Shown: piece by piece, positions 3,151 through 33,229 of the stretch
Numbering within the stretch: the first letter of the stretch is position 1
Layout: every line of letters starts with the position of its first letter
Source of the DNA: Candidatus Micrarchaeota archaeon
GTDB taxonomy: Archaea > Micrarchaeota > Micrarchaeia > Micrarchaeales > CABMGC01
Reading direction: 5' to 3'
Assembly (NCBI GenBank): GCA_021802765.1
Contig: JAJZRI010000002.1
Coordinates: 91,348 to 155,347 of the forward strand
DNA: 64,000 nt
Translations under genes and position numbers: made by a program
Notes under the pieces: generated by a model
Seen by the model: only the letters and a program-made list of their open reading frames with translations
What the model was told of the DNA's origin: nothing
The model's database searches: none

Positions 3151-3801
3151 ATGGCACTATTCGGACCGTCAAAGAGAATACTCAAGAATGAATTGGCAGA
3201 GATGAGGATGCAAAGAGATGCCGCGTTGTCGCTTGCGCATGAGGATCCACTTACTGGATTGAATAACAGGAGGGCCCTTGATTTAGAGATCCATAAGCAT
3301 GAGAGCAGGCTAAAAAGAGAGGCCACAGAGAAAGTATATCGGGACGTCGCATTCATAGTAATCGATGTCAACAATCTAAAGCTGATAAACGACAATTACG
3401 GCCATGAAGCTGGAGACAGCATGATAATGGCAGTCGCCGGAGTGCTTAACGATCTTACAAGGCACGGAACAGATACCGTGGCAAGAACTGGAGGAGACGA
3501 ATTTGTAGTCGTGCTTCCTGTGGATGTTTCCCATTCAAATCCAATAATGGCATCACATTTCGCAACAAGAGTGGCTAATGTATTCGCAAACAGGGTAATT
3601 AACAACCTTGAGAAGATAACGGTAAGCGGAACCAACGAGCCCATTACAGTCTCACTTGGGGTCGCAACATACCATTCATCTGAGGATTCGATGCAGAAGG
3701 CACTTGCAATGGCGGATGCAAGGATGTACAACATGAAGAACTCGATGAAGGTTGATGGCAACAAGCCACACGATGCATTCTTCGAAGCGCACAGGAATTA
3801 A
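3151..3801 (+). CDS. GGDEF-domain diguanylate cyclase, stand-alone (short coiled N-terminus, no sensor domain)
   Basis: 216 aa carrying the full set of GGDEF hallmarks: 'DPLTGLNNRRAL', 'DVNNLKLINDNYGHEAGD', 'ARTGGDEFVVVLP', 'SLGVA' and 'ADARMYNMKN'. There is no RxxD I-site five residues upstream of GGDEF (sequence there is HGTDTVAR). Confidence 0.85.
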   Translation: MALFGPSKRILKNELAEMRMQRDAALSLAHEDPLTGLNNRRALDLEIHKHESRLKREATEKVYRDVAFIVIDVNNLKLINDNYGHEAGDSMIMAVAGVLNDLTRHGTDTVARTGGDEFVVVLPVDVSHSNPIMASHFATRVANVFANRVINNLEKITVSGTNEPITVSLGVATYHSSEDSMQKALAMADARMYNMKNSMKVDGNKPHDAFFEAHRN

Positions 3802-4280
3802 CCAATAATCTCTTAGTTTTTCCCAAATAATCTTCACATTCGTTTGCTGCTTCACATTTGCATTTGCAGGGCAGATTTTGGCTGGCTTATAATTACACTA
3901 AAAGAAAACGATGTGTTGTTTAAGGCTGGTTTCTGTGAGCGGTTTTTCCGAGGTAAAGCCTTGTTTTTCGCTCTTCCACTATTTTTCATGGACTGGAAAT
4001 ATGCGCCAAAGTGCGTTCCATATTTTTAATTTATTTTTCAGCACTTCCATAATACTGGCTCAAAAATTGCCCGCACGAATAAAACAATCTTTTCAGGCCT
4101 CTTTTGGCGCTCAATAGGGGTGGCATCACCAAAGACTGCCATCTTCCAAAAATCAGAAACAGGCAGCTTTAAGGAAATGCTTTTTCATTCTAAAAAAATG
4201 AAAGACAGCGATCTCATCAAATAAAAAGTATTTGTTTGAGTTTTATGGAATTATGTCGTATATGTCTTAGATCTCTTAGT

Positions 4281-4889
4281 TCAGATCAGATGATCTAGGT
4301 GATCTGCACTCCTGCGCAGTTCCTTGAGCGCTTCCTGGTCAAACTTCCGACTTATCTCCATGCTCTTGAGACGTAGAGGATCTATAATCTTGAATGTCCC
4401 ATCCGCATCGACCATTATGTTGGTATCGCTTATGTCCCCATGAGCTATTCCTTTTTCATGCAGAGTGTTAACCGCAGCTTCAACACCACGAACAATCATC
4501 ACATAATCAACGGCAAGCTGTTGATCCATAGCAGCCAAAGCCCCAGTATATACCTCCTTGAGAGTCTTGCCTTCTATGAACTCTGTCAGATAGCCAGCAA
4601 CATAGCCATAATCATTTGAAACCACCATTGCAACTGGAACTACTGTGTTTTGTGGAAGTGCGGCATATATTTCGCGCAGATTATTGAAGTCCCATTCCAC
4701 ATATTTTCCTGGATCGTCAGAAAGTTTGCCTATGAATGGCGCGTATATATCATAGAAATTCTTATTGCATTTAAAGAACAGGTTATTAAGTTCGTATCCG
4801 CGGCGTTTAAGACCTAAGAGGAGATCTGATCTATCCTTGGCCTTTATCCTAATCGGATCATCATTTAATGCGACTATCATAATCATCAT
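4281..4889 (-). CDS. minimal protein-kinase-like (Bud32/RIO/Kdo-kinase-like) protein, paralog 1
   Basis: 202 aa. Motifs: 'LKRRGYELNNLFFK' (shared N-terminal motif with candidate beta3 Lys), 'GYLTEFIEG' hinge, 'GIAHGDISDTNIMV' catalytic loop (HGDxxxxN) and 'KIIDP' metal-binding Asp. Confidence 0.6.
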   Translation of the reverse strand: MMIMIVALNDDPIRIKAKDRSDLLLGLKRRGYELNNLFFKCNKNFYDIYAPFIGKLSDDPGKYVEWDFNNLREIYAALPQNTVVPVAMVVSNDYGYVAGYLTEFIEGKTLKEVYTGALAAMDQQLAVDYVMIVRGVEAAVNTLHEKGIAHGDISDTNIMVDADGTFKIIDPLRLKSMEISRKFDQEALKELRRSADHLDHLI

Positions 4890-4953
4890 TGATTTTATAA
4901 TATCTAGATATTATAGCCAAACAAATTGAGAATTTCCAACAACATTTTGGTAT

Positions 4954-5688
4954 TCACTTCCTTTTGAGCGACCTTAATTCACTTTTAAGTATTCTATTTA
5001 TCTCTGTCTCAATATCTGCGGATCCAAAAATCTTTACAAGATCCTTTATGACATCGATTGTATCCGAGCGCATAATAATACCCAGTTCGCGCTCCGGATC
5101 AAAATCCTTGGATAGGCATTTTGCAATTGATATATTGTAGGAAACTGAATATACTGTATTTCTTACACTTGGCGCTTCTATTCTTCTAAATTCGCGCGCG
5201 ATATCCTTGACCTCATTCAAATAGCTGCCATATCCGTATATATAAATATATGAAAGAGAGCCAAGAACTGCCAAATATTCCTCTGCCTGCAAATATAGAT
5301 ACTCGCCCTGAAGGCTTGACATTTTATGCTGCAGGCCATTTAGCCACCTGAACCTGTGCATATTCTCATGTGCTATAACCTCACTTACCTTTAATCCGAA
5401 TCCGCCCTCCTTGGGACCAAATACGCCCTCGCTTACAAGATAGTCGAGCAGGTGACTTGATAGCCTGATTGTGTCTGGCGGGTTGTACACGCCAATCGTG
5501 CTTTGGCGGCCAAGGTCCGTTGCTATCATTATTTTTGGAAGATTGAGCTTTGTAGCCGAGAATCTGTTAAAGCAGGACGTAGACTCTATTATCTCTCCGC
5601 GTATTGCATCCCTAGCCCATTCGCTGTAGCCTGGATCAAACGAGCGCTGAATCCCTTTTACTGCCCTGTAGCTCATTTGCTGCTGCAT
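4954..5688 (-). CDS. HExxH-motif protein, putative zinc metallopeptidase
   Basis: 244 aa. A single 'VIAHENMHRF' HExxH motif is followed by acidic residues ('GEY', 'AEEY') 19-27 aa downstream. The gene sits inside the kinase-like array. Confidence 0.4.
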   Translation of the reverse strand: MQQQMSYRAVKGIQRSFDPGYSEWARDAIRGEIIESTSCFNRFSATKLNLPKIMIATDLGRQSTIGVYNPPDTIRLSSHLLDYLVSEGVFGPKEGGFGLKVSEVIAHENMHRFRWLNGLQHKMSSLQGEYLYLQAEEYLAVLGSLSYIYIYGYGSYLNEVKDIAREFRRIEAPSVRNTVYSVSYNISIAKCLSKDFDPERELGIIMRSDTIDVIKDLVKIFGSADIETEINRILKSELRSLKRK

Positions 5689-5765
5689 GAAAAAAACTTG
5701 CGATTTAGTGATATAATAACCTTTCTAGAATTTTCTGCTAAAAATTATTTAGACATTCTAAGAAT

Positions 5766-6560
5766 CTATTCTCCACGCTTTAGCTGCATTATCTCAGCCT
5801 TCATGCCTTTTATGGCTCCCTTGTCGTTTCTAATGTTTAGCTCCATGTTCTTTCCAAATCCGCGCCATCTTCTTATGGCCGGATTGAATAACACAAATCT
5901 TCCGTCGACTACCCTGACATTAACATAAAATGGGGCATACATGTAAAGGTCGAAATATTGGTGACCAAAGTTTCCGTGTCCAAGTCCAACGCTATTGAGC
6001 TTCTCTATGGCGCCTATGAATTCCTCCACTGCATTTATGTATGTCTTTGGAGTTACCCTGGATTGCCATTCCTCTGGAAACATCCTGCCCAGGTATTCCA
6101 TCAGGTAACCGCTACTTACTTCCCTAGTCTTCATGCTGAAATTACCGTTACGCGGGATTTTTTTGAGATTGGCTAGCTCAACTCTGGATACTGCAGCTAT
6201 GGGTGTTACAGAATGCTCCGGTATTACGGAATGAATCATATTGAGAAGTGAGAATTGCGAGCGCAGATCGACCAAGTTGACATTTGAGCAAGTATAATTA
6301 GCAGATATCCCTATTGAGGTGTTTAACTCTCCTGTCTCATATATGAAACGCATCTTTCCAAAATTATCCTCGAAAACGGGGTCTGGAATCTTGTATGTTT
6401 TAAGGAATACCTGATCTGGTTCAAATCCCCTCTGCTTTAACTTCCTAGGAAGATCATCTGCCCTTACCACAACAATCCTGTCTCTTTGAGTATCACACAG
6501 GTTCTCCCTGAACATTTCGGAAACCTGTTTTTTTATCAGTTTTTGCATATAAATAATCAC
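5766..6560 (-). CDS. kinase-like paralog 2, predicted catalytically dead (pseudokinase)
   Basis: 264 aa. It shares 'LKQRGFEPDQVFLK' and 'GYLMEYLG' with its neighbours. The catalytic loop is 'GLGHGNFGHQYF' (D->N, Asn lost) and the metal site is 'LFNP' (D->N). Confidence 0.5.
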   Translation of the reverse strand: MIIYMQKLIKKQVSEMFRENLCDTQRDRIVVVRADDLPRKLKQRGFEPDQVFLKTYKIPDPVFEDNFGKMRFIYETGELNTSIGISANYTCSNVNLVDLRSQFSLLNMIHSVIPEHSVTPIAAVSRVELANLKKIPRNGNFSMKTREVSSGYLMEYLGRMFPEEWQSRVTPKTYINAVEEFIGAIEKLNSVGLGHGNFGHQYFDLYMYAPFYVNVRVVDGRFVLFNPAIRRWRGFGKNMELNIRNDKGAIKGMKAEIMQLKRGE

Positions 6561-6584
6561 TTTTGCGACGACATAACTTCATTT

Positions 6585-7244
6585 TCAAGTGAATCCGCCA
6601 GATAGCGGTTCGAGGCATGCTCTGTCCGCTTCATAGCTCACGCTGCCTTTTAGCGTATCGTAAAATTTACGGTATTCTTCAATTGACATCCTGTCCATCT
6701 TGATTGCATCTTCGACGTCATACGCAGGATCAATCAACTGCACTGCTGCAGCTGCGCCTATGAATATGTTGTTGTACACCAAGAGATCGCCATGGCCGAC
6801 GCCTTTGGCGTTAAGTCTTGTGACGACGACATCAAGACTTTCTATGCCAAGCAGTATCATCTCCTTTGACTCGGTTTTTTCGACTTCGGTGCGTGCGGAA
6901 TGCGCATAATATTGCAGGAGGATTCCAAGGCTCTGCCCTCTGGCCCGCTCCATTACGTATCCCAGCACCTTTGCATTGGGTTCTTCACTCATTACCAGAG
7001 CAATTGGCCTGACAACGTGCCGGGGATCTGCGTCGTACATCCTGTATAAGTGTTTGTACTCTTCGACTATGCTGCCTTCAGTTCCAGGATGACACTTGGT
7101 AATGACTTCGTGGGTCTCGCCGCAATTATTGAATGTAATTTTTGAGTCTCTCTTGAAGAAGACAGTTTTAGGATCATGGCCCATGCTCTTCAGGGCAGAG
7201 TCTAGCCTTTCGCCGCTGTTAGCAGTTATTATTTTTCCCTTCAT
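6585..7244 (-). CDS. minimal protein-kinase-like protein, paralog 3
   Basis: 219 aa. Motifs: 'LKSMGHDPKTVFFKRD', 'VVRPIA', 'GYVMERARG', 'GVGHGDLLVYNNIFI' and 'QLIDP'. Confidence 0.6.
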   Translation of the reverse strand: MKGKIITANSGERLDSALKSMGHDPKTVFFKRDSKITFNNCGETHEVITKCHPGTEGSIVEEYKHLYRMYDADPRHVVRPIALVMSEEPNAKVLGYVMERARGQSLGILLQYYAHSARTEVEKTESKEMILLGIESLDVVVTRLNAKGVGHGDLLVYNNIFIGAAAAVQLIDPAYDVEDAIKMDRMSIEEYRKFYDTLKGSVSYEADRACLEPLSGGFT

Positions 7245-7271
7245 TTGGATCCCAATATTTCTTTATACTAA

Positions 7272-7880
7272 TCATTCCCTAAGTAACGACTTTACATGCT
7301 CTAGTTTCTTTTCGTAGGATGCAATCCTGATTACGTCATCCAATCTTGCGTCGTCAGAATCCATCACGTAAGGATCTATCAATTTTATCCTTCCACGTCT
7401 GTTTACTATTATATTGAAGTAATTCAAATCACCATGATACAGTCCCTTGTTATGCAGTCCGTTGACTGCTGAGATAAGGTCTTCGAGGGCAGATACGAAT
7501 TTGATCCTATTTCTCCTTATTTCCGCATTTGATTTTTCAGAGTAATATGAATCGTAATCAAGATAACCCAGTCCGTCACCATTCGCCGCTTCCATCACAA
7601 AACCGACGAAAAGAGCATTTTTGTGAGCACTGTTTTTAACCTCCGCAATTGGTCTTACCACGTGCACCGGATCCGCAGCATAAAGTGCAGATAGCTTAGT
7701 GTATTCCGAACGAGGCGTAGCGCTCTCGAAAAGGCCCCTGGTCTCACCCTCATATTCGAAGAATAGTCGCGGATCTCTCTTGAAGTATATTGTCTTTGGA
7801 TCGTAACCCATCTTTCTGAGCGCTTCGTCTACCTCTGCACCGTTCTTTGCGATTATGGGTTCTTTTTCAACGTATCGCAC
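7272..7880 (-). CDS. minimal protein-kinase-like protein, paralog 4
   Basis: 202 aa. Motifs: 'LRKMGYDPKTIYFKRD', 'VVRPIA', 'GFVMEAANG', 'GLYHGDLNYFNIIV' and 'KLIDP'. The GTG start overlaps the TAG stop of the upstream paralog by 1 nt (TAGTG). Confidence 0.6.
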   Translation of the reverse strand: MRYVEKEPIIAKNGAEVDEALRKMGYDPKTIYFKRDPRLFFEYEGETRGLFESATPRSEYTKLSALYAADPVHVVRPIAEVKNSAHKNALFVGFVMEAANGDGLGYLDYDSYYSEKSNAEIRRNRIKFVSALEDLISAVNGLHNKGLYHGDLNYFNIIVNRRGRIKLIDPYVMDSDDARLDDVIRIASYEKKLEHVKSLLRE

Positions 7881-8572
7881 TATGCACCACGCATTAATTT
7901 TTTAATTTCAATTTCCAGCTGAAGTTTCCTCATGTTGTCAATTTGGATGGCAAATTCCATATCTGTTTTTGGATCTTTGTGGAAAGCTGCAACCGCCGGA
8001 TCTATGAGCACGGCCCTTCCATCTGAAACCATCACATTGCATGGAAAGAAATCGCCGTGTGCGACGCTGTTTTCGTTGAGCGCATTTACCAGATCTATCG
8101 CTTGTTTTGCCATTGACACGAAAGTATCTAAGTAGTACTCCCAGCTGGGGCTATTGCGGTTTATTTTGAGTCTTTCTTGATAATAGGACAGCATGGTTCC
8201 TTCCACATATTCCATTAGATAACCGAAGTTACCATTTGCGCTTCTGTCTCCCTGAAAGAGTGGACGGGTGCCTTCGGGCAGCTTTAGTATTGCAATTGGC
8301 TTTACCGAATTGCTTGGAAGAATACTATGTATTACTTCGAGGTGCTCCATCTGACCATCTTCAAGTTCACCGAAGGACATAACTCCGCGTATTCCACGTG
8401 AAATAAACATGGCTCCTGATCCGCCCTGCTCGACTGATGTCGATCTACCTATGAACTTGGCGCTTCTGGCGCCTCGGGCAAGCTTGAGGAAGACCTCGTC
8501 GGCATTGTAGCCTAACTCATTAAGCTGACCTGAAAGTTCCCTGATGTTTTTTGATTCTATTGTCAATACCAT
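7880..8572 (-). CDS. minimal protein-kinase-like protein, paralog 5
   Basis: 230 aa. Motifs: 'LNELGYNADEVFLK', Gly-rich 'VEQGGSGAMF', 'VKPIA', 'GYLMEYVEG', 'SVAHGDFFPCNVMV' and 'VLIDP'. An SD-like GGGAGTGAT lies just upstream of the ATG. Confidence 0.6.
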   Translation of the reverse strand: MVLTIESKNIRELSGQLNELGYNADEVFLKLARGARSAKFIGRSTSVEQGGSGAMFISRGIRGVMSFGELEDGQMEHLEVIHSILPSNSVKPIAILKLPEGTRPLFQGDRSANGNFGYLMEYVEGTMLSYYQERLKINRNSPSWEYYLDTFVSMAKQAIDLVNALNENSVAHGDFFPCNVMVSDGRAVLIDPAVAAFHKDPKTDMEFAIQIDNMRKLQLEIEIKKLMRGA

Positions 8573-8576
8573 TATA

Positions 8577-9254
8577 TCACTCCCTTAGGCAGATCTCCAT
8601 CGCGTTGAGAATGTCCATCTCGTAGACATCTATGTTCTGCCGGTCCGAATCCATCGCGCTTCTCAGGCTGCCCTTGTGCATCGGATCTATGAATATCGGC
8701 TTGCTTCCCGATACAAGAATGTTCTCATAGTGCGCATCTCCGTGCGCCACGCCGTTCAAATTGAATGTTCTGAGCACGTCTATAGCCTTGGAGACAAGTT
8801 TCACGTAATGACCTACCTTGTTTGGGTTTGTTGTCATTTCAAGCTTGATTTTGTAATCGAAAATTCCCACCCCCTCGACGAGCTCTATCACGTATGCCAT
8901 CTTCCTCACGCCATTTGCATTGGGTTCCCTCATGAAGACCTCTGCCACAGGTTTAACGACATTTTCTGGGGCTATTGCATGAAGCCGGGATAGAAGCATC
9001 ATCTCATACGGATCAAGCCCCCCATAGTACGTGCTGGTTGTGGTGCCCTCCACGCCGCTAGAGGTCAGGAATATATTTCCATATTTATCAATTACCTGAT
9101 TGAGGAAATGTGAATTAAGGTCTCTGTTGCATTCGCCTATCTTCACAAATAACTGATCTGGAGAGTATTTCGGGAGCTGCCTTAACATGTCATTTATGTC
9201 CTCGCAGACAAGCTTTTGCACTTTGGTTTGTGGCATTTTTGTGGCGACACCCAT
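8577..9254 (-). CDS. minimal protein-kinase-like protein, paralog 6
   Basis: 225 aa. Motifs: 'PKYSPDQLFVK', 'VVKPVA', 'AYVIELVEG', 'GVAHGDAHYENILV' and 'IFIDP'. The ATG overlaps the TGA of the upstream ORF (TGATG). Confidence 0.6.
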   Translation of the reverse strand: MGVATKMPQTKVQKLVCEDINDMLRQLPKYSPDQLFVKIGECNRDLNSHFLNQVIDKYGNIFLTSSGVEGTTTSTYYGGLDPYEMMLLSRLHAIAPENVVKPVAEVFMREPNANGVRKMAYVIELVEGVGIFDYKIKLEMTTNPNKVGHYVKLVSKAIDVLRTFNLNGVAHGDAHYENILVSGSKPIFIDPMHKGSLRSAMDSDRQNIDVYEMDILNAMEICLRE

Positions 9255-9841
9255 CAGAATAACCTTCCCCTGCTCAGGGAACTCCTATTTATCAGTATCC
9301 TTACAATCGGATGTTTGCTTGAACTTTCGTAGTCGCTTACTGCCCGTACATGGACTTCTCTGACATTCTCGTCGTTTATCGAGAATATGCCTGCCTTGTT
9401 CATGCTGTTTGCGGCGAGTACTCCGAAGAGGGCCTTGTCATCTATGTTGGTGGCGCCGTCCCTTGCTGCCATGTAGCTCTTTGCAGCCTCTTCTGACATG
9501 CTGCGCTGCCTTGTCTTGTTGCCTGCCTTCTCGGCATCCTCTGCGGCCTTTGCGAACTCGTATGCCGCATGCCTTTGGTCTCCGCTCTCAAGAAGCTTCG
9601 CAGCGCACAGCTCCCTGCGGTCCGATGCGTCAGAGAATATGATCTTGGCCTGGTACCTCTTGCCTATTCTTAGGGATATGCTCCCAGCCTCCTCCAGGAG
9701 CTCGGCTCTTCTTCCTATCTCAAAATATCTGTCGCCGATCCTGTCGGCCTCGAGGTCGAGCTTGCGTGACGTTGCCTCGTATCTCATGCTCGTCTCTATC
9801 CTGTCTCTGTGCAATGACGCCAGATGCTCCCTAGAAACCAT
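9254..9841 (-). CDS. hypothetical alpha-helical protein, translationally coupled to the kinase-like array
   Basis: 195 aa, charged and Ala-rich, helix-prone. No motif recognised. Its stop overlaps the start of paralog 6. Confidence 0.45.
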   Translation of the reverse strand: MVSREHLASLHRDRIETSMRYEATSRKLDLEADRIGDRYFEIGRRAELLEEAGSISLRIGKRYQAKIIFSDASDRRELCAAKLLESGDQRHAAYEFAKAAEDAEKAGNKTRQRSMSEEAAKSYMAARDGATNIDDKALFGVLAANSMNKAGIFSINDENVREVHVRAVSDYESSSKHPIVRILINRSSLSRGRLF

Positions 9842-9870
9842 TCGGCCAACAACCCCGCACTATATCCAGA

Positions 9871-10245
9871 TTATACTCTGCCTTCGTACCTGCGCTGGTG
9901 ATAATCGCTAATTCTATCCCTTAGCTCTCTTGCAAAGGCAAGATAATTGTCCTTCTTGTCAAGATTGACTGCCGTTGCGCTTCCAGTAGCCAGCGCGGCA
10001 ACCAGGCTCACTACCTGACCTGCGTTTGAGTAGTTTCCATGGTCAGGCTGGAAGGTCAATCCCACCACTGTAAAGGCACTAAAGCCAGCCGTAGCCGCCC
10101 CGTATGCCCAGGCCCTGAACCTGTGCGCGTTGCCCTTATTTGTGAAATCGTTCTCAAGTCTTGCGACGCTTTTGAATTCGCGCGCATTTGTTATCCTTTC
10201 AGGAGCTGAATTCATCTGGGCATCTATACGCTTGCGCAATACCAT
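9871..10245 (-). CDS. small 2-TM membrane protein (helix - TM - TM - helix architecture)
   Basis: 124 aa. Two hydrophobic segments ('AWAYGAATAGFSAFTVVGL' and 'AGQVVSLVAALATGSATAV') are flanked by charged helices. Its stop lies 29 nt upstream of the start of the next gene in the cluster. Confidence 0.45.
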   Translation of the reverse strand: MVLRKRIDAQMNSAPERITNAREFKSVARLENDFTNKGNAHRFRAWAYGAATAGFSAFTVVGLTFQPDHGNYSNAGQVVSLVAALATGSATAVNLDKKDNYLAFARELRDRISDYHQRRYEGRV

Positions 10246-10332
10246 ATTTATCGGTATAAATAGCGTCGTTCCTTATATTTAAAGGTGGCCCAAATTGGCA
10301 AAATTAGGAATTTTTTTGTTATTATGATAGTA

Positions 10333-11025
10333 CTAAATTCTTATACCCGGTTTGAGTCCGACGATGCTTGTTCCGTGTTCCCTGAGCTTCTCGGTCTCGC
10401 GCTCTATATACCCAGATATCCTTTTGGATCTAGAGAAGAGCAGGTTTCCTGCTATCTTTATATCTATTGCATCTTTTGACTCTCCGATTTTATTCAAAAC
10501 CTCGTCCTTTAGCGAAAGTATCTCTTTATGCAATAAGGTCATGTGCATGTCTGCCATCCTGTTTGCTAGAGATGACGGCATCTGCCTTCCCATAGCCGAA
10601 TTTACAGCGGTAAGCTCGTTCATGAACTCCTCGAAGCTCTCCTTTATTGCCGCCTTGAATGTGTCGGATATTGTAACATTAAAATCATCTATTGCTCCAG
10701 CACCGATCCTGGCTGACCTGACAACCATCTTAGGATCGCTGCGTTTTAGAGATATATAGTGATGATCTCCTCTAAGGAGCCTTTCGTCGGATATTTTTGG
10801 TATCTCCCCGCGCACCGAGCTGATTCCTGATCTAAAAGCCGCCCCCATCTCCATCGAAGCGGAATCGACGAGCTCGAATATCGTCTTTATCCTCATCTCC
10901 TTCCATATGCTCTCAAGGCTCATATCCACTTCGTGGTGTCTAACTACTGCGCGGATTGGCAGAAAATCGCTCTTTCCTCCTTCGATTAGTTTAAGCTCTA
11001 CTCCGTTTGATGTTTTTCTTTGCAC
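10333..11025 (-). CDS. hypothetical protein, first gene of the co-directional cluster
   Basis: 230-aa ORF with a GTG start and no recognised motif. The antisense ORF 10352..10759(+) is judged a shadow. Confidence 0.4.
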   Translation of the reverse strand: MQRKTSNGVELKLIEGGKSDFLPIRAVVRHHEVDMSLESIWKEMRIKTIFELVDSASMEMGAAFRSGISSVRGEIPKISDERLLRGDHHYISLKRSDPKMVVRSARIGAGAIDDFNVTISDTFKAAIKESFEEFMNELTAVNSAMGRQMPSSLANRMADMHMTLLHKEILSLKDEVLNKIGESKDAIDIKIAGNLLFSRSKRISGYIERETEKLREHGTSIVGLKPGIRI

Positions 11026-11361
11026 GAAGCCACCCTAATTTCATTGGCCATCGATGACCGATGCGTTTTATCGCTTGCAACATGCTTGTAAACTGAATAG
11101 TATATAAACGGTTGTCATTATCGGAAGTGTGGGACAAAAACCTGTCGTCGTAGGTAAAAATTACTTGTAGAAAAGATTTAAATATGGGTATAATTATTAG
11201 AATTAGTAAGTGTCAAAGTGGCTAGCGGAAATCAGGATGTAAGATTTGCGGCATGCGTAATGCCAACATCAAGGCTAGCCTCAACTATATGGATGATATT
11301 GAATAAGTATCCCATATTTGTTGTGTAAGAGCGATAAAAAACTTCTTTTTCGGTGGCTCTT

Positions 11362-11694
11362 ATGCAACTATCAACAAATACTAGTGGGAAGGAATTCGGT
11401 GTCAGGGTTACGGACAAGGAACTCACGATACTCTACGAGATTGGACTTGAGCTAATACCTACTGCAACCGAATTCGTGGAAAACGTGGCTTATAAGTATC
11501 AGGTCTCGCAGAGCGGCGTATGGTACACGCTCAAGAAGCTAAAGGCTACGGGCTTTGTTGACTTTGCGGAGAAGGGAGCTGAGCACAGGCCCCTCGCTCT
11601 AACTGATAGCGGAACAAAAGCGATAAGGAGCAGGATCGTCGATGTAGAGAACCGGCGCTACCACTACGTAAGCGTAGCCCCTATTAAAAGATGA
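11362..11694 (+). CDS. winged-helix DNA-binding protein (MarR/ArsR-like)
   Basis: 'YQVSQSGVWYTLKKLKATGFVDF' is a typical recognition-helix-plus-wing segment. The start could be GTG 11353 or ATG 11362. Confidence 0.5.
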   Translation: MQLSTNTSGKEFGVRVTDKELTILYEIGLELIPTATEFVENVAYKYQVSQSGVWYTLKKLKATGFVDFAEKGAEHRPLALTDSGTKAIRSRIVDVENRRYHYVSVAPIKR

Positions 11695-11698
11695 TTTT

Positions 11699-12241
11699 AT
11701 GGGTTTTAGTGTTAACTTTGACAGACTGCCATCCAAGCAGGCTCTGGCATTTCCTGTCAGAAAAGGAAGTGAAGACGTGGTATTAAAGCCAAAACTGGAC
11801 AAGAATGCAAAAGCGAGCGCAATTGAATTTGCCGTGGCAAACAACGATTATCAGAGTATTAAGCAGCTTGCCCCGAAGATGGGAACTAAGGAGCTTACCG
11901 CGATGCTCTTCCTTGCAAGCGCACTGCGCACTACAAATGCCCAGACCATCCATATGCTTGTGGATTTCGGCGCAGATGTGAAGGTCAGGGATTCATATGG
12001 AAGAACATGCTTGCACGAAGCTGCCGCATTTGGGAATGCGGAGACGTCAATTGAGTTGGTGAAGGTTGGAGTGGAAGTGGATGCCGTGAGTCGGGATGGC
12101 AGCACCGCTGCAGTAGAGGCAGGCAAGTTCAGGCACTATGAAGTTGTCAGTGCACTTGAGGGCATGCACACCAATATGGGAATAAAAAACAGGTATGGCA
12201 GGAGCGCAGACTCCTATCTTAAAGATCTGCGGAGGAAATGA
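11699..12241 (+). CDS. ankyrin-repeat protein
   Basis: 180 aa with repeats such as 'IHMLVDFGADVKVRDSYGRTCLHEAAAFGNAETSIELVKVGVEVDAVSRDGSTAA'. It starts 5 nt after the wHTH gene. Confidence 0.7.
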   Translation: MGFSVNFDRLPSKQALAFPVRKGSEDVVLKPKLDKNAKASAIEFAVANNDYQSIKQLAPKMGTKELTAMLFLASALRTTNAQTIHMLVDFGADVKVRDSYGRTCLHEAAAFGNAETSIELVKVGVEVDAVSRDGSTAAVEAGKFRHYEVVSALEGMHTNMGIKNRYGRSADSYLKDLRRK

Positions 12242-13896: not shown

Positions 13897-14751
13897 ATGG
13901 GAAAGCTCGGGGCGCTATTTAGACTAACGCGGTTTGAACACAGCATACTCCTGATAATAGCCGTTATAGGTGCTGAGATTCTCGCTGGAGGCCTGCCAAG
14001 TGCGCAGGTTGCTGCATTGAGCATAATAACTCCAATATTTCTAAGCATGAGCGCTTTTGCGATTAACGATTATTTCGACGTCAACGTTGATAGGGCTAAC
14101 AAGAAGAAAAGGCCGCTGGTAACCCGGGAGCTTAGGCCATCTGACGCGCTAGCCGTGGCCTCAGTTTCCATGGTGATAGGGATTGCTGGGGGCCTGCTGC
14201 TTAACGCGTACTGCTTTATAATAGCAGTAATATTTGGCGTGCTTTCTATACTGTATAGTTATAAGCTAAAGGACGTGCCGCTGATCGGCAATTCGTATGT
14301 CGCCTTCTCCATGGCGATACCATTTGTGTTTGGCAACTATGTTATGACCTACAGGCTCCTTGATAGCGTGGTATTGATATTCTTCCTCATATTCATAAGT
14401 GGCCTGGGGCGTGAGATATATGGCACGATAAGGGACTTTGATGGAGATAAGAAGCGCGGAGCCATGACTGTGCCGATGCTAATAGGTAAAAAGGCGTCAG
14501 CGTACCTAGGATTGCTGCTCTATCTGGCTGCGGTTGCAATATCTGTTTATCTCTTTTTACACGTGCTGCCATTTGCTGGGAACATACTGTACGTCTCTTT
14601 GATATTAATATCTGATTTTATGTTGGTCCTATCAAGCATTCCGTTCATGCTGGCTAATAGAAATTGGTATGGCTATGCCAGAAACCTATCCCTTGGGGCT
14701 ATGGGACTGGCGCTTTTATGCATACTACTTTCGGCTGTAATATATGTTTAA
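13897..14751 (+). CDS. UbiA-family prenyltransferase (likely digeranylgeranylglyceryl phosphate synthase)
   Basis: 284 aa and polytopic. Contains the first Asp-rich motif 'NDYFDVNVDRANKKKRP' and the second region 'RDFDGDKKRG'. Confidence 0.7.
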   Translation: MGKLGALFRLTRFEHSILLIIAVIGAEILAGGLPSAQVAALSIITPIFLSMSAFAINDYFDVNVDRANKKKRPLVTRELRPSDALAVASVSMVIGIAGGLLLNAYCFIIAVIFGVLSILYSYKLKDVPLIGNSYVAFSMAIPFVFGNYVMTYRLLDSVVLIFFLIFISGLGREIYGTIRDFDGDKKRGAMTVPMLIGKKASAYLGLLLYLAAVAISVYLFLHVLPFAGNILYVSLILISDFMLVLSSIPFMLANRNWYGYARNLSLGAMGLALLCILLSAVIYV

Positions 14752-16565
14752 CGCGACCTTCTCCTTTTTGGCATAGATTTCTTTGGTACCTGCAGCGCCT
14801 GCTTTGGTGGAATTGATTGCGCAGTCTCAGATTGCTTCGGCCTGTTCACGATAAGAAATATGAGTATTGCAAATACCACCATGAGGAGTATTATGACAAG
14901 CATGAGCATGTAGGTAAGCGTCTGGACCTGGGCAGAGAGGCCGTTTATCTGCGCCTCTTCTGTATCAATATATGTATGAGAGGGAGTCAATCCGGCATAT
15001 ATCTCTGAATTAAGGCTTCCTAGAGCAAGGGAGAGTCTTGCAGTTGAATATATGTCTGGCGCATATGCTGACGTGCTGTTGCTTGCATTTGCCTCGTTAA
15101 GATAGAATGCGCTCTGCAATGCAAACTGCGTTGGCCATATTCCAGTTGCCCTTGAGAGGGCCGTTGAGACGGTTGATGCAATAGTATTGTATGCCGGAAC
15201 GGTTGAATTGTAGAACACGTTTGCATATGTGAGTGAATAAAGTGCAGTTGCATAGTCATTATTAGCGATGCTGTAATTGGCGGCCTGAACATAGAGCTGG
15301 TTACCATATACTTTCTGTGCATAGGCAAGCTCGCTAAGAGCCTGGCTTCTTAGATTGCTTGATTGCGTAACTGGATATCCCCCCATTCCTGCGGAGATGT
15401 TGTACATCTCACTTGTCGCCGCGCACCATGCCTGCGCAGGTGCTGCAACCTGCAGCGCCTGCATTATCTCGTCACTAGTCTGCGAGGAATTCAGGAACGA
15501 GGATGCTGATTTAAGTGTCATTAGCGCCCATGAGAGTCGCAATTTCCCTCCGATTATGAACTCGTAGTTCTGTGAAGTCATATTGGGAGTGTAGTTAAGC
15601 GCATTGCAGTATGCTGACATATTTGCTATTATCTGTCCCGCTTGTAGCTTTGACACATTCGCATATCTTAGCATCAATGCGGTTGGATCCTCTATGAATG
15701 CAAAGTCTGCCCCGGTGTAGTAATAACCCTTGGAAGATATCTGTCGGTATTGCTGAAGCTGCGAATCGAGCTGGAGCTTTGCGCTTCCAAAAAGAGTGCC
15801 GTTTATCTGGTCTATCTGGTTTTGAGTGAAGTTGAATGTGAACGCAGTAAGAGGACCGAATGTGCTCTCGTTGCACAGCGGGCATAGGGTGCTCACATTG
15901 GGAATCATTCCTGCGTGATAGTTGGTTGTTATGTTAAATGAAAGGTTCTGCGGCTCTTTTACGCCAAATGTATATGGAAGGCCCTGTGAGACATTGCTTA
16001 TTTCTACCACAGGTATTTTGTATACTTGCTGCGCCATATAATAAAGCAGATACTCTGATGAGAACCTGTCAACTGAAGGCACCAAAATAAATTCCGAATC
16101 TACTGCATTTGCTGCGCCTACCTTGTCAAAAACCCCTCCGACAGGCCCTACTGAACCGTCAGGAGAGATCGTACCTGTAACAGTAAAATTGCCAAGAAGA
16201 GGCCTCTTCTCCAAGGCAGATATTGTAAGTAGCGTGAATGCAAATCCGCCGCTGGGCCCGGAGATGTTCGGATTGTTATTTCCTATCTGAAAGGCAAAAT
16301 TATACTTTTTCTCGCTGAAATTCAGATATTGCGTTGCATATGAAACTGCAGTGTGTATTGAAGATATTGTATCGTTGCCGACATTGGGGCTGCCGCGGTT
16401 TACGATTATTGTTCCATTTCCTGGAGTTACTGCTAGCGAGATGTTAGTCATCTCTCCACGGTCAAGGCCGATGAGAACCGCTGGTGCTGTGAAATGGGCA
16501 GTGTATGCAAATGAGACCGGTCCGAGTAAAAGTAGCACGAGTGCTATGGTGCGATAATAATTCAT
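14748..16565 (-). CDS. secreted, C-terminally anchored protein with an N-terminal Lon-protease-like (S16) domain
   Basis: 605 aa. An N-terminal signal-like helix is followed by 'ISGPSGGFAFTL' (Lon GPSAG Ser motif) and 'GTISPDGSVGPVGGVFDKVGAA' (Lon catalytic Lys region). The C-terminus has a TM helix plus the basic tail 'PKRRRSR'. I counted about 23 N-x-S/T sequons by hand. Confidence 0.55.
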   Translation of the reverse strand: MNYYRTIALVLLLLGPVSFAYTAHFTAPAVLIGLDRGEMTNISLAVTPGNGTIIVNRGSPNVGNDTISSIHTAVSYATQYLNFSEKKYNFAFQIGNNNPNISGPSGGFAFTLLTISALEKRPLLGNFTVTGTISPDGSVGPVGGVFDKVGAANAVDSEFILVPSVDRFSSEYLLYYMAQQVYKIPVVEISNVSQGLPYTFGVKEPQNLSFNITTNYHAGMIPNVSTLCPLCNESTFGPLTAFTFNFTQNQIDQINGTLFGSAKLQLDSQLQQYRQISSKGYYYTGADFAFIEDPTALMLRYANVSKLQAGQIIANMSAYCNALNYTPNMTSQNYEFIIGGKLRLSWALMTLKSASSFLNSSQTSDEIMQALQVAAPAQAWCAATSEMYNISAGMGGYPVTQSSNLRSQALSELAYAQKVYGNQLYVQAANYSIANNDYATALYSLTYANVFYNSTVPAYNTIASTVSTALSRATGIWPTQFALQSAFYLNEANASNSTSAYAPDIYSTARLSLALGSLNSEIYAGLTPSHTYIDTEEAQINGLSAQVQTLTYMLMLVIILLMVVFAILIFLIVNRPKQSETAQSIPPKQALQVPKKSMPKRRRSR

Positions 16566-31742: not shown

Positions 31743-33229
31743 ACTCCAGTCGATGCTGCTGGAGGATACTGCTATCAGATTTCGACAGCCATGCAAGTCA
31801 GCTCAACGGCCTCGTTGGGCGGCGTACGGCTCAGTAACGCGTGGTCAATCTACCGCAGAGAGGGGGATAACCTTGGGAAACTGAGGCTAACACCACATAG
31901 GTTAGGGACTCTGGAAAGAATCCTAATTTAAAAAGTTGCAAATTGCAGCATTACTGCTCTGCGATGAGACTGCGTCGGATCAGGCAGATGGCGGGGTAAC
32001 GGCCCACCATACCTTTGACCCGTATGGGATATGAGAGTAAGAGCCCAGAGAAGGGCACTGAGACAATGGCCCTAGTGCTACGGCATGCAGCAGGCGCGCA
32101 AACTCCACAATGCACATACGTGTGATGGGGGGAATCTGAGTGGTTGACTTCGGTTAACCTTTTGCCAAGTTTAGCAAGCTTGGAGAATAAGTGCTGGGTA
32201 AGACCGGTGGCAGCCGCCACGGTAATACCGGCGGCACAAGTGGTATTCACAATTATTGGGCTTAAAGCGTTAGTAGCCGGCTGAAACAGTCTTGTGTGAA
32301 ATGTCGGTGCATGACATCGACACGTGCATAGGATACCTTTCGGCTAGGGAGTGGGAGAGGTCAGGAGTATTCATGGGGTAAGGGTAAAATCTCGTAATCC
32401 TATGAAGACTACCGGTGGCGAAGGCGCCTGACCAGAACATATCCGACGGTGAGTGACGAAGGCCAGGAGAACGAATCGGATTAGATACCCGAGTAGCCCT
32501 GGCAGTAAATGATGCAGACTCTGGTGTTGCGTTTATCACGAATAAATGCAGTACCGTAGGACAACTGTTAAGTCTGCCGCCTGGGGAGTACGGCCGCAAG
32601 GTTGAAACTTAAAGCAATTGGCGGGGGAGCACACAAGGGGTGGATGCTACGGTTCAATTGAATTCAACGTCGGGAACTTTACCTGGAGCGACGGCAGTGT
32701 GAAGGTCAGACTAATGATCTTGCCTGACAAGCCGAGAGGTGGTGCATGGCGATCGTCAGTTCGTGGTGTGAACTCTCCGGTTAAGTCCGGTAACGAACGA
32801 GATCCTCGTTGACAGTTGCTACTGGTCCAGAGATGGGCTAGGCACTCTGTCGAGACCGCCTACGTTTAAGTAGGAGGAAGGAGAGGGCGACGGTACGTCA
32901 GTATGCCCCGAATCTCCAGGGCTACACGCGGCATACAGAGGTTGGTACAATGGGTCGCTACCCAGAGATGGGACGCTAATCCCCTAAAACCAATCTAGGT
33001 CTGAATTGAGGGTTGAAACTCACCCTCATGAAACTGGAATCCCTAGTAATCGCGTGTCACCAACGCGCGGTGAATATGTCCCCGCTCCTTGCACACACCG
33101 CCTGCCAAGTCATCCAAGTGGGGCCTTAGTGACGCAGCATCCTCGTGATGCTTTCGAACTAAGGTTCCGTGAGGGGGGCTAAGGCATAACAAGGTATCCG
33201 TAGGGGAACCTGTGGATAGATCACCTCAA
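31743..33229 (+). rRNA. 16S (SSU) ribosomal RNA, archaeal, divergent
   Basis: The 5' end 'TCCAGTCGATGCTGCTGGAGGATACTGCTATCAG' corresponds to the archaeal TCCGGTTGATCCTGCCGGAGG... start. Recognisable internal blocks include GGTGGCAGCCGCCACGGTAATACCGGC, GGATTAGATACCCG, TTAAAGCAATTGGCGGGGGAGCAC and TGCACACACCGCC. The 3' end is GTAGGGGAACCTGTGGATAGATCACCTCA. At about 1487 nt, no intron is indicated. Confidence 0.9.

Follow-up and report, generated by a model that had tools for sequence, protein, structure and literature searches.

Tandem near-minimal protein-kinase-like paralogs in a variable locus of a Candidatus Micrarchaeota archaeon

We analysed a stretch of 64,000 nucleotides (nt) from a Candidatus Micrarchaeota archaeon, a member of the DPANN archaea (contig JAJZRI010000002.1, positions 91,348-155,347; hereafter the window), in which a co-directional block of minus-strand genes (4281-11025) encodes six kinase-like proteins, K1 to K6. 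With moderate confidence, we read these six as the product of a tandem expansion, specific to this lineage, within an uncurated family of minimal atypical protein kinases found across DPANN; they would depend on partner proteins and are located in a variable Micrarchaeota locus. The K family is a new family-level variant within a well-known superfamily, tandem-expanded in one Micrarchaeota lineage together with orphan companions, and nothing that we found points to a categorically new mechanism. An initial annotation of the same DNA had described a cluster of nine genes; the listing of open reading frames (ORFs) instead gives ten, the six kinase-like genes and four others. All six of the kinase-like ORFs that it had reported are present on the minus strand, with products of 202-264 amino acids (aa): K6 (8577-9254, 225 aa, with LFVK38, HGD171, N178 and FIDP188), K5 (7880-8572, 230 aa, with VFLK30, HGD172, N179 and LIDP189), K4 (7272-7880, 202 aa, with IYFK34, HGD149, N156, LIDP167 and D182), K3 (6585-7244, 219 aa, the sister of K4), K2 (5766-6560, 264 aa, a degenerate copy with HGN195, N214 and LFNP224) and K1 (4281-4889, 202 aa, with LFFK40, HGD150, N157 and IIDP168).

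The six K proteins are mutually homologous at 22-40% pairwise identity, with every pair significant (BLASTP via orthologue comparisons) and K3 and K4 at the top of the range (40%). A family hidden Markov model (HMM) matches exactly these six ORFs and no other in the window. The proteins share an ordered skeleton in which (L/V/I)(F/Y)(F/L/V)K is followed by P..V..P(I/V)A, GY(V/L)ME, HGDxxxxN and (L/I/F)IDP, and among the positions conserved without exception are the (V/L)F(F/L)K Lys, both the Pro and the Ala of P..V..P(I/V)A, the Glu of the hinge, the catalytic-loop His-Gly and Asn, and the Pro of IDP. The motif order originally proposed is present throughout, but K2 departs from it at both catalytic aspartates, with HGN for HGD, FNP for IDP and a 12-residue loop insertion before the Asn; the other five copies (K1 and K3-K6) retain the Lys, HGD, Asn and IDP. 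Likewise, the Leu of the proposed 'E...L' helix is invariant but its Glu is not, the alpha-C Glu occurring only in some paralogs. K2 matches the family HMM at 1.5e-64 despite having no kinase-family match of its own in Pfam, NCBIfam or PADLOC, and is predicted to be a conserved pseudokinase. No signal peptide or transmembrane (TM) segment was found in the kinase paralogs.

Searches of curated libraries returned kinase families for most of the paralogs, mainly at scores below the family cut-offs. K1 passes the gathering score of Pfam Pkinase (PF00069; 34.1 vs 31.7 bits), with lower scores for K4 (25.2), K6 (12.9) and K5 (12.3) and no match for K2 or K3. None of the proteins reaches the cut-off for RIO1 (PF01163, 22 bits), for which the scores are 21.4 for K4, 19.3 for K1, 18.8 for K5 and 15.5 for K6, and only K1 marginally exceeds that for Kdo (PF06293; 22.2 vs 21.3 bits), followed by K4 (17.2), K6 (12.6) and K5 (11.2). 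The sub-threshold matches of K4, K5 and K6 comprise Pkinase, RIO1, Kdo, APH and TCAD9. In NCBIfam, the best matches are PknB-type kinases, LanKC/LanL kinase domains, Bud32 and Kdo kinase, all far under their cut-offs; K5, for instance, matches LanL, arch_bud32 and LanKC at expectation (E) values of 1e-6 to 2e-5, and K1 (30.1 bits), K5 (26.9) and K4 (22.8) all fail the 125-bit cut-off of arch_bud32 (TIGR03724). K3 has marginal matches only (NCBIfam LanKC, E=0.011; PADLOC, E~0.05), and both K2 and K3 are placed in the kinase family because they are homologous to the other paralogs. Judged by these curated thresholds, and apart from the marginal K1 scores, the six are not orthologous to Bud32, RIO, Kdo or APH proteins.

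Profile searches of the PDB, made with 9-sequence and 96-sequence family profiles, matched Stk/PknB-like kinases, GCN2, PknG, PknA, LanKC, RIO2 and the chain 8k20_B with E values down to 3e-11. In these alignments the HGD, Asn and IDP of the family coincide with HRD, Asn and DFG, respectively, and the hinge is also aligned. The 226 aa chain 8k20_B, which has a Bud32 signature, was aligned from the hinge to the C-terminal helix (E=5e-11); only the Bud32 and RIO2 alignments extend into this helix, and inspection of the Bud32 alignment showed that D182 (K4 numbering) falls on the conserved Asp of Bud32 'KAVDLYVLER'. An AlphaFold2 model of K4, built from a shallow family alignment, had a mean predicted local distance difference test score (pLDDT) of 88.7 and a predicted template modelling score (pTM) of 0.84, with the order beta-alpha-beta(Lys)-beta-alphaC-beta4-beta5-alphaD-alphaE-catalytic loop-beta7-beta8-IDP-one long helix. 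Foldseek matched this model with probability 1.0 to CDKs, BRAF, MLKL, GCN2 and Rio2, eukaryotic protein kinases included. In the N-lobe, the strand with the invariant Lys comes after a beta-alpha unit that ends in 'GY.P'. The C-lobe is shortened to about 30-47 residues, essentially one helix, after the IDP Asp (32-47 when counted in the sequences), and there is neither an activation segment nor an alpha-G to alpha-I substrate-binding subdomain. These results, from profiles and from the model, indicate that the K proteins are near-minimal members of the protein-kinase-like superfamily with a predicted bilobal fold. The protein-kinase-like identity suggested in the initial annotation is thereby borne out by the library matches, the in-register PDB profiles and the K4 model, and profile and structure checks of the kind that it had recommended, the latter made on K4, recovered the kinase fold with HGD, Asn and IDP at positions equivalent to HRD, Asn and DFG.

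Among characterised kinases, Bud32 has the architecture closest to that predicted for the K proteins, and Bud32 and RIO are the nearest overall. Bud32/PRPK, the kinase/ATPase subunit of KEOPS, resembles the K proteins in its length (~200-226 aa), N-lobe, HGDLxxxN motif, DFG-equivalent Asp and short C-terminal helix with a conserved Asp, as well as in lacking an activation segment, and arch_bud32 is among the best NCBIfam matches of K1, K4 and K5. However, the K proteins reach at most 30 bits of the 125 needed, have IDP where Bud32 has IDFG, begin with an 'L..LGY.P' beta-alpha unit in place of the glycine-rich-type loop of Bud32, and occur in the window as six tandem copies rather than one. The KEOPS subunits Kae1, Cgi121 and Pcc1 had no match, and no fusion to them was seen, among the ten genes, the scanned flanks or the genes called in related loci. 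The ribosome-maturation ATPases RIO1 and RIO2 likewise have HGDLxxxNI and lack an activation loop and substrate-binding subdomains, and the RIO2 profile alignment runs through the post-DFG helix (E~6e-10), with Rio2 also among the Foldseek matches; the K proteins differ in being shorter, in lacking the RIO N-terminal helix or winged helix-turn-helix (wHTH), and in falling short of the RIO1 gathering score. The micrarchaeon Mia14 has been reported to be without RIO kinases (PMC5498576). Hanks-type kinases (PknB, Stk1, GCN2) are the top PDB and Pfam relatives over the hinge, alpha-D, alpha-E, catalytic loop and DFG, but the K proteins have HGD rather than HRD, are ~200 aa rather than ~270 aa long, and lack the glycine-rich loop, the catalytic-loop Lys, the activation segment, APE and alpha-G to alpha-I.

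The family extends well beyond the window. A word-indexed homologue search with the paralog profiles returned only 5-6 clusters, and exhaustive HMMER was needed to reveal the family, yielding ~190 representatives at E≤1e-10 from 1.84 billion, ~118 of them full-length matches of 150-300 aa. HGDxxxxN(I/V)...(L/I)IDP is present in nearly all members. In a 96-member alignment, N156 is invariant, and K34, P71, P77, G93, G101, H149, G150, D151, D169, P170 and D182 are each found in at least 90% of the sequences. Of these 96 members, 54 match Pkinase (E≤1e-3), 30 Kdo, 29 RIO1, 21 APH and 2 Fructosamin_kin, and because the matches are split among Pkinase, Kdo, RIO1 and APH, no single Pfam family claims the K family. 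The names given in source databases are equally inconsistent (InaA family, protein kinase, phosphotransferase, fructosamine-3-kinase and hypothetical). The named members come from metagenome-assembled genomes (MAGs) of Micrarchaeota, Micrarchaeaceae and Parvarchaeota; the family is spread over DPANN genomes, mostly with one copy in each, and is not unique to the window locus. A scan of GTDB representative genomes with the K6 group found no relatives, and a literature search found no paper describing the K family or the gene cluster. These data indicate that the K family is a putative DPANN-enriched, uncurated clade of atypical kinases. A viral origin was also considered and rejected: scans of IMG/VR with K4 and K1 found no viral relatives, and the fold matches in BFVD are generic giant-virus and phage kinases.

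Based on this anatomy, the five copies with intact motifs (K1 and K3-K6) would use their Lys, Asn and IDP Asp to hold ATP-Mg, and the HGD Asp would transfer or hydrolyse the gamma-phosphate. Without a substrate-docking lobe, they would most likely act as partner-dependent kinases or ATPase switches in the manner of Bud32 and RIO, with each active copy binding its own specific protein partner. K2 would serve as a non-catalytic scaffold or regulator, given that both Asp residues are lost yet purifying selection persists. Several points weigh against partner-dependent protein kinases. The glycine-rich loop is absent from the K proteins, as the initial annotation had remarked for the region before the candidate ATP-binding Lys; the PDB profile alignments begin after the invariant Lys, so that its equivalence to the beta-3 Lys is a candidate one; and in the PDB matches listed, the template modelling score to solved kinases is ~0.4 over 113-154 columns, a low value because just the shared-core columns align. 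Moreover, no partner protein was found, a GGDEF protein being the only one whose gene recurs beside K genes across distant relatives, and the Kdo and APH matches of 30 and 21 of the 96 members, together with names such as fructosamine-3-kinase, would also fit a small-molecule substrate.

It is conceivable that the paralogs work as a battery of small-molecule kinases, as APH, Kdo/WaaP or fructosamine kinases do, and that every paralog has its own substrate among sugars, lipid-linked glycans, antibiotics or scavenged metabolites. The HGDxxxxN motif is of the Brenner type common to APH, ChoK, Kdo and FN3K, and the Pfam matches just cited, the two Fructosamin_kin matches, the marginal Kdo score of K1 and the annotations 'InaA family', 'phosphotransferase' and 'fructosamine-3-kinase' would all fit, as would the dependence of DPANN archaea on scavenging. 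APH, ChoK and FN3K enzymes, however, typically have a helical substrate-binding C-terminal subdomain, and the residues left after the metal-binding Asp in the K proteins are so few that this subdomain must be missing. Protein kinases, Bud32 and RIO2 head the PDB profile matches, the best 60 of which include no APH-type enzyme, and no biosynthetic or transport genes are linked to the K genes. Compared with the Kdo/WaaP/InaA and APH/FN3K groups in particular, the K proteins have the HGDxxxxN motif, the weak Pfam matches and some database names in common, but they differ in the missing substrate-binding subdomain and in having no lipopolysaccharide or glycan gene context, and the window organism is an archaeon. 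We consider a small-molecule role rather unlikely.

The four other genes of the block, all on the minus strand, are U230 (10333-11025, 230 aa), which is the first gene and was not assigned a function by any library, TM124 (9871-10245, 124 aa, with two Ala/Gly-rich, weakly hydrophobic stretches), H195 (9254-9841, 195 aa, a predicted helical protein) and HEXXH244 (4954-5688, 244 aa, an orphan with AHENxHRFR). The junctions described in the initial annotation were all correct: at TAGTG (7878-7882) the K5 stop overlaps the GTG start of K4, at TGATG (9252-9256) the stop of H195 overlaps the start of K6, and a Shine-Dalgarno-like GGGAGTGAT lies directly upstream of the K5 ATG at 8572. The remaining junctions are gaps of 4-87 nt. 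Its proposal of a single operon is plausible for H195-K6-K5-K4, which are joined by overlaps or a 4 nt gap and are the only clearly coupled genes; 5' of TM124, HEXXH244 and K1 the gaps measure 64-87 nt and contain A/T-rich, TATA-like boxes, so that one transcript for the whole block is no more than a possibility. A scan for bacterial-type promoters and terminators gave counts close to the shuffled expectation and is inapplicable to an archaeon.

To follow the history of the array, we compared the window with loci of relatives, labelled L001-L026. The number of K genes among them is 1, 3, 4 or 6, or at least 4 where the contig ends. The ten-gene cluster recurs in identical form in L015 and L016, which are assemblies independent of the window (99.9% nt identity). 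In L001-L006, K3 and K2 are missing and remnants of 35 nt and 51 nt are left in their place; because these remnants persist, we regard L001-L006 as deletion derivatives. The more distant L007 has U230-TM-H195-K6-K5-K4, a PsiE-like membrane gene and a seventh, divergent K, and L008 holds K2-HEXXH-K1. In L022 and L023, three unrelated genes are followed by orthologues of K6, K4 and K1 only, and HEXXH is absent; the flanks shared with the window are the genes for the Lon-like protein, UbiA, p72, p112, Ank and wHTH, at 46-71% identity. A single K gene is present in the retrieved stretches of L013, L014, L020, L024 and L026, and L025 has one K gene plus, ~5.5 kb from it at the edge of the locus, a further K-like ORF that is truncated. 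The PsiE-like gene of L007 (3857-4303) encodes a 148 aa protein with four TM segments (Pfam PsiE, E=1.6e-4) and lies between the K4 orthologue and the seventh K.

Orthologues of the individual paralogs could be followed between these loci. K6 is 62% identical to its orthologue in L007 and 39% to those in L022/L023, K4 is 67% identical in L007, 95.5% in L001 and 44% in L023, K1 is 66% identical in L008 and 55% in L023, and K2 is 83% identical in L008. In a neighbour-joining tree, the orthologue clades of K1, K2, K4, K5 and K6 have 96-100% bootstrap support (96% for K6 and 100% for K1), and K3 is sister to the K4 clade with 98%; the deeper branching order is not resolved. The ratio of nonsynonymous to synonymous substitution rates (dN/dS) is 0.08-0.22 where dS is unsaturated, with the exception of HEXXH244 compared with L001, where a value of 0.6 comes from very few substitutions. 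One-to-one orthologues and low dN/dS together imply that the duplications are old and the copies maintained. Of the two explanations that the initial annotation had offered for the divergence of the six, old or fast diversification, the first stood and the second proved wrong. K6, K4 and K1 form the shared core of the array, K3 is a duplicate of K4, and K5 and K2 are additional. These patterns point to paralogs that are old, individually conserved and partly dispensable, as would be expected of divided function and not of an arms race or decay.

The K5 gene of strains L001-L006 (2-691 in L001) encodes a protein only 70% identical to that of the window, though the strains are otherwise 94-95% identical. 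In L001 its dS relative to the window copy is 1.47 (dN/dS 0.14), compared with 0.02-0.17 for K4, HEXXH244 and K1, and because this dS lies far above that of its neighbours, we interpret the L001 K5 as a recombined old allele. Positive selection or hypervariability was considered for this divergent copy and rejected, as the dN/dS of 0.14 indicates purifying selection and hence recombination. Along the locus, dS ranges from 0.02 to 0.48 in the genes other than K5, pointing to mosaic recombination among Micrarchaeota strains.

If the paralogs were degenerating or non-functional duplicates, or mis-called ORFs, then the loss of both catalytic Asp residues from K2, the dispensability of K2 and K3 in L001-L006 and the failure of either to match curated models alone would be accounted for. 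However, dN/dS is well below 1 in all tested genes, including K2 (dN 0.09 against L008, with dS saturated), uninterrupted reading frames recur across many independent assemblies, the catalytic residues are near-invariant in 96 members and the structure prediction is confident. Purifying selection strongly disfavours decay, which we regard as highly improbable.

The accessory genes follow a different course from the kinases. U230, TM124, H195 and HEXXH244 had no match of note in Pfam, NCBIfam, PHROG, PADLOC or the PDB. The U230 orthologue of L007 is 62% identical (dN/dS 0.16), and U230 is absent from the syntenic L022/L023 variant. H195 is 65% identical to its L007 orthologue, which likewise overlaps its K6, and in L022 an unrelated gene occupies the H195 position with a 7 nt gap to the K6 orthologue; the overlap kept in L007 and this close abutment in L022 hint at coupled expression with K6. 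TM124 had been described as a protein with two TM segments, a description that its hydropathy does not sustain, since the hydrophobic segments are only marginal (Kyte-Doolittle 19-mer peak of 1.47) and the L007 orthologue (46% identical) has none at or above 1.4. For HEXXH244, only 4 relatives were found among 5.8 billion proteins. AHENxHRFR (H107-E108-x-x-H111) and a downstream Q-x2-E-Y are invariant in the 4 orthologues, as is E137, a candidate gluzincin ligand ~26 residues downstream; the motif fits a candidate gluzincin-type metal site. An AlphaFold2 model from a 4-sequence alignment is unreliable (pLDDT 41.8). Neither the L022/L023 arrays nor that of L007 include HEXXH244. No homology was detected between the accessory proteins of the window and the products of the three genes at the same position in L022/L023 (phmmer; hhalign probability <1%). 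It appears that U230, TM124, H195 and HEXXH244 are recent, lineage-restricted additions that track the kinases only in close relatives, and they are best treated as candidate partners, substrates or regulators and not as defining components.

The initial annotation had also raised the possibility of a conflict or defence module of kinase sensors or effectors with a protease and a membrane effector. Extended to host interaction, this reading would make HEXXH244 a metalloprotease and TM124 the membrane effector, directed against viruses of the Micrarchaeon or proteins of its Thermoplasmatales host. The locus does vary in copy number and accessory content between strains and species and includes the recombined K5 allele, an ankyrin-repeat gene is adjacent, K genes of relatives lie near VapBC, HicB, AbiEii and HEPN/NTase genes, and the kinase cores of K1, K4 and K5 match the PADLOC models PD-T4-6, MkoA and mad6/MADS, in the case of K1 down to E=4e-12. 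These matches, however, cover ~100 residues of models 300-1600 aa long, that is, the generic kinase core alone, and the other components of the systems are not present; PADLOC gave no match for the four accessory proteins or K2. This agrees with the earlier statement that no described system of this composition was known. The identification of TM124 as a SLATT protein was rejected, as the weak SLATT_1 match (E=0.01; 15.8 of the 41 bits required) was accompanied by no Pfam SLATT match, was not reproduced in the L007 orthologue and comes from a protein of marginal hydropathy, and the unreliable HEXXH244 model does not establish a protease fold. Purifying selection and stable one-to-one orthologues are unlike arms-race loci, the accessory genes are not kept with the kinases past close relatives and are replaced in L022/L023, the K4 and K1 scans of IMG/VR gave no relatives on viral contigs, and the kinases lack signal peptides and TM segments. 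Beyond toxin-antitoxin (TA) genes near the K genes of relatives, the locus appears to have no viral or defence-island hallmarks. Nothing that we found thus supports a defence or conflict role, which we judge unlikely.

The TA and abortive infection (Abi)-type genes near single-copy K genes, namely VapBC, AbiEii, HicB-like and NTase/HEPN genes, are found at 9143-9750 in L014, 8520-9134 in L025, 4232-5014 and 13274-13474 in L020, and 9077-10062 in L026. Their presence suggests that the K family tends to sit in accessory, variable regions.

Three genes that flank the block in the window were examined as context and are not counted among its members. The first encodes a stand-alone GGDEF protein of 216 aa (3151-3801, plus strand; Pfam GGDEF, E=3e-34, motif intact) and is convergent with the block, 480 nt downstream of K1. 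A GGDEF gene lies at most 5 kb from a K gene in 4 of 7 Micrarchaeota contexts (the window, L014 11504-12148, L020 5020-5919 and L025 2873-3484), a proximity that may partly reflect shared synteny. GGDEF domains have been reported to be almost absent from archaea (PMC5847659). The other two genes, for an HTH-like protein (11353-11694, plus strand, 113 aa, with weak MarR, MntR and ArsR-type matches) and an ankyrin-repeat protein (11699-12241, plus strand, 180 aa; Ank_2, E=7e-17), form a pair transcribed divergently from the kinase block. The HTH-like gene keeps its syntenic place next to the variable locus in L015, L022 and L014; the ankyrin gene is seen again in L015, L016 and L022 but did not turn up in L014. 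Such repeats are uncommon among archaea. The best NCBIfam matches of the ankyrin protein are Legionella Ank effectors, a similarity at the level of the repeats only.

A more elaborate scheme can be drawn from these neighbours, in which the kinases together with H195, U230, TM124 and HEXXH244 would be a system of a DPANN symbiont that modifies proteins of its Thermoplasmatales host across the cell contact, or that gates a protease or membrane effector in conflict, or in which the kinases would control the adjacent GGDEF cyclase. We regard such a scheme as quite unlikely. If true, kinase control of GGDEF would amount to phosphorylation-regulated cyclic-dinucleotide signalling in archaea, and the recurrent K-GGDEF neighbourhood is a separate lead on archaeal cyclic-dinucleotide signalling.

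DPANN archaea have tiny genomes, and six old paralogs kept in one of them imply a real functional investment. At ~200 aa, with one helix after the metal-binding Asp, the K family is among the smallest protein-kinase-like architectures met in this analysis, and no curated model covers it. Under our preferred reading of an expanded family of minimal atypical kinases, its characterisation would add an atypical-kinase branch beside Bud32 and RIO, and could show how a minimal kinase core becomes specific, partners and a dedicated pseudokinase being the probable means. The family also offers a handle on signalling in Micrarchaeota, where RIO kinases are reportedly missing and two-component systems almost absent (PMC5498576, PMC5847659).

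Several further features were noted around the block. In L001-L004 and the more distant L008, a gene for a 98 aa Ada_Zn_binding-like protein lies between K1 and the GGDEF gene (3360-3760 in L001), and in L001 it is flanked by imperfect direct repeats of ~22 bp, GAAAAACTA(A/G)GAGATTATTGG. The window has one copy of this repeat (~3802-3822) and no Ada_Zn_binding-like gene and, with one repeat copy left and the gene gone, looks like the product of a repeat-mediated deletion. Elsewhere, the 872 bp contig of L010 (DAIDJH010000318.1), found in a MAG labelled 'Bdellovibrionales bacterium', encodes a protein 92% identical to the aminotransferase of the window and is probably a binning contaminant; a scan of GTDB representative genomes with this aminotransferase returned fragmentary MAG contigs only, one with the Bdellovibrionales label and one labelled 'Candidatus Micrarchaeota archaeon', to which the window's aminotransferase is 98% identical. 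A Micrarchaeota source agrees with the DPANN or Thermoplasmata genomes to which the initial annotation had pointed. The window also contains a complete archaeal 16S rRNA gene (31743-33229, plus strand), which stands alone, and one tRNA-Val. No 23S or 5S match at the gathering score was obtained in the 64 kb, indicating that the rRNA genes are unlinked. Finally, a 605 aa protein encoded at 14748-16565 (minus strand; 57% identity in L022) combines a Lon_C protease domain (from the precomputed Pfam annotation of L015) with a hydrophobic stretch near its N terminus and numerous N-x-S/T sequons; it may be a Lon-like protease that is secreted or bound to the membrane and lacks the ATPase module.

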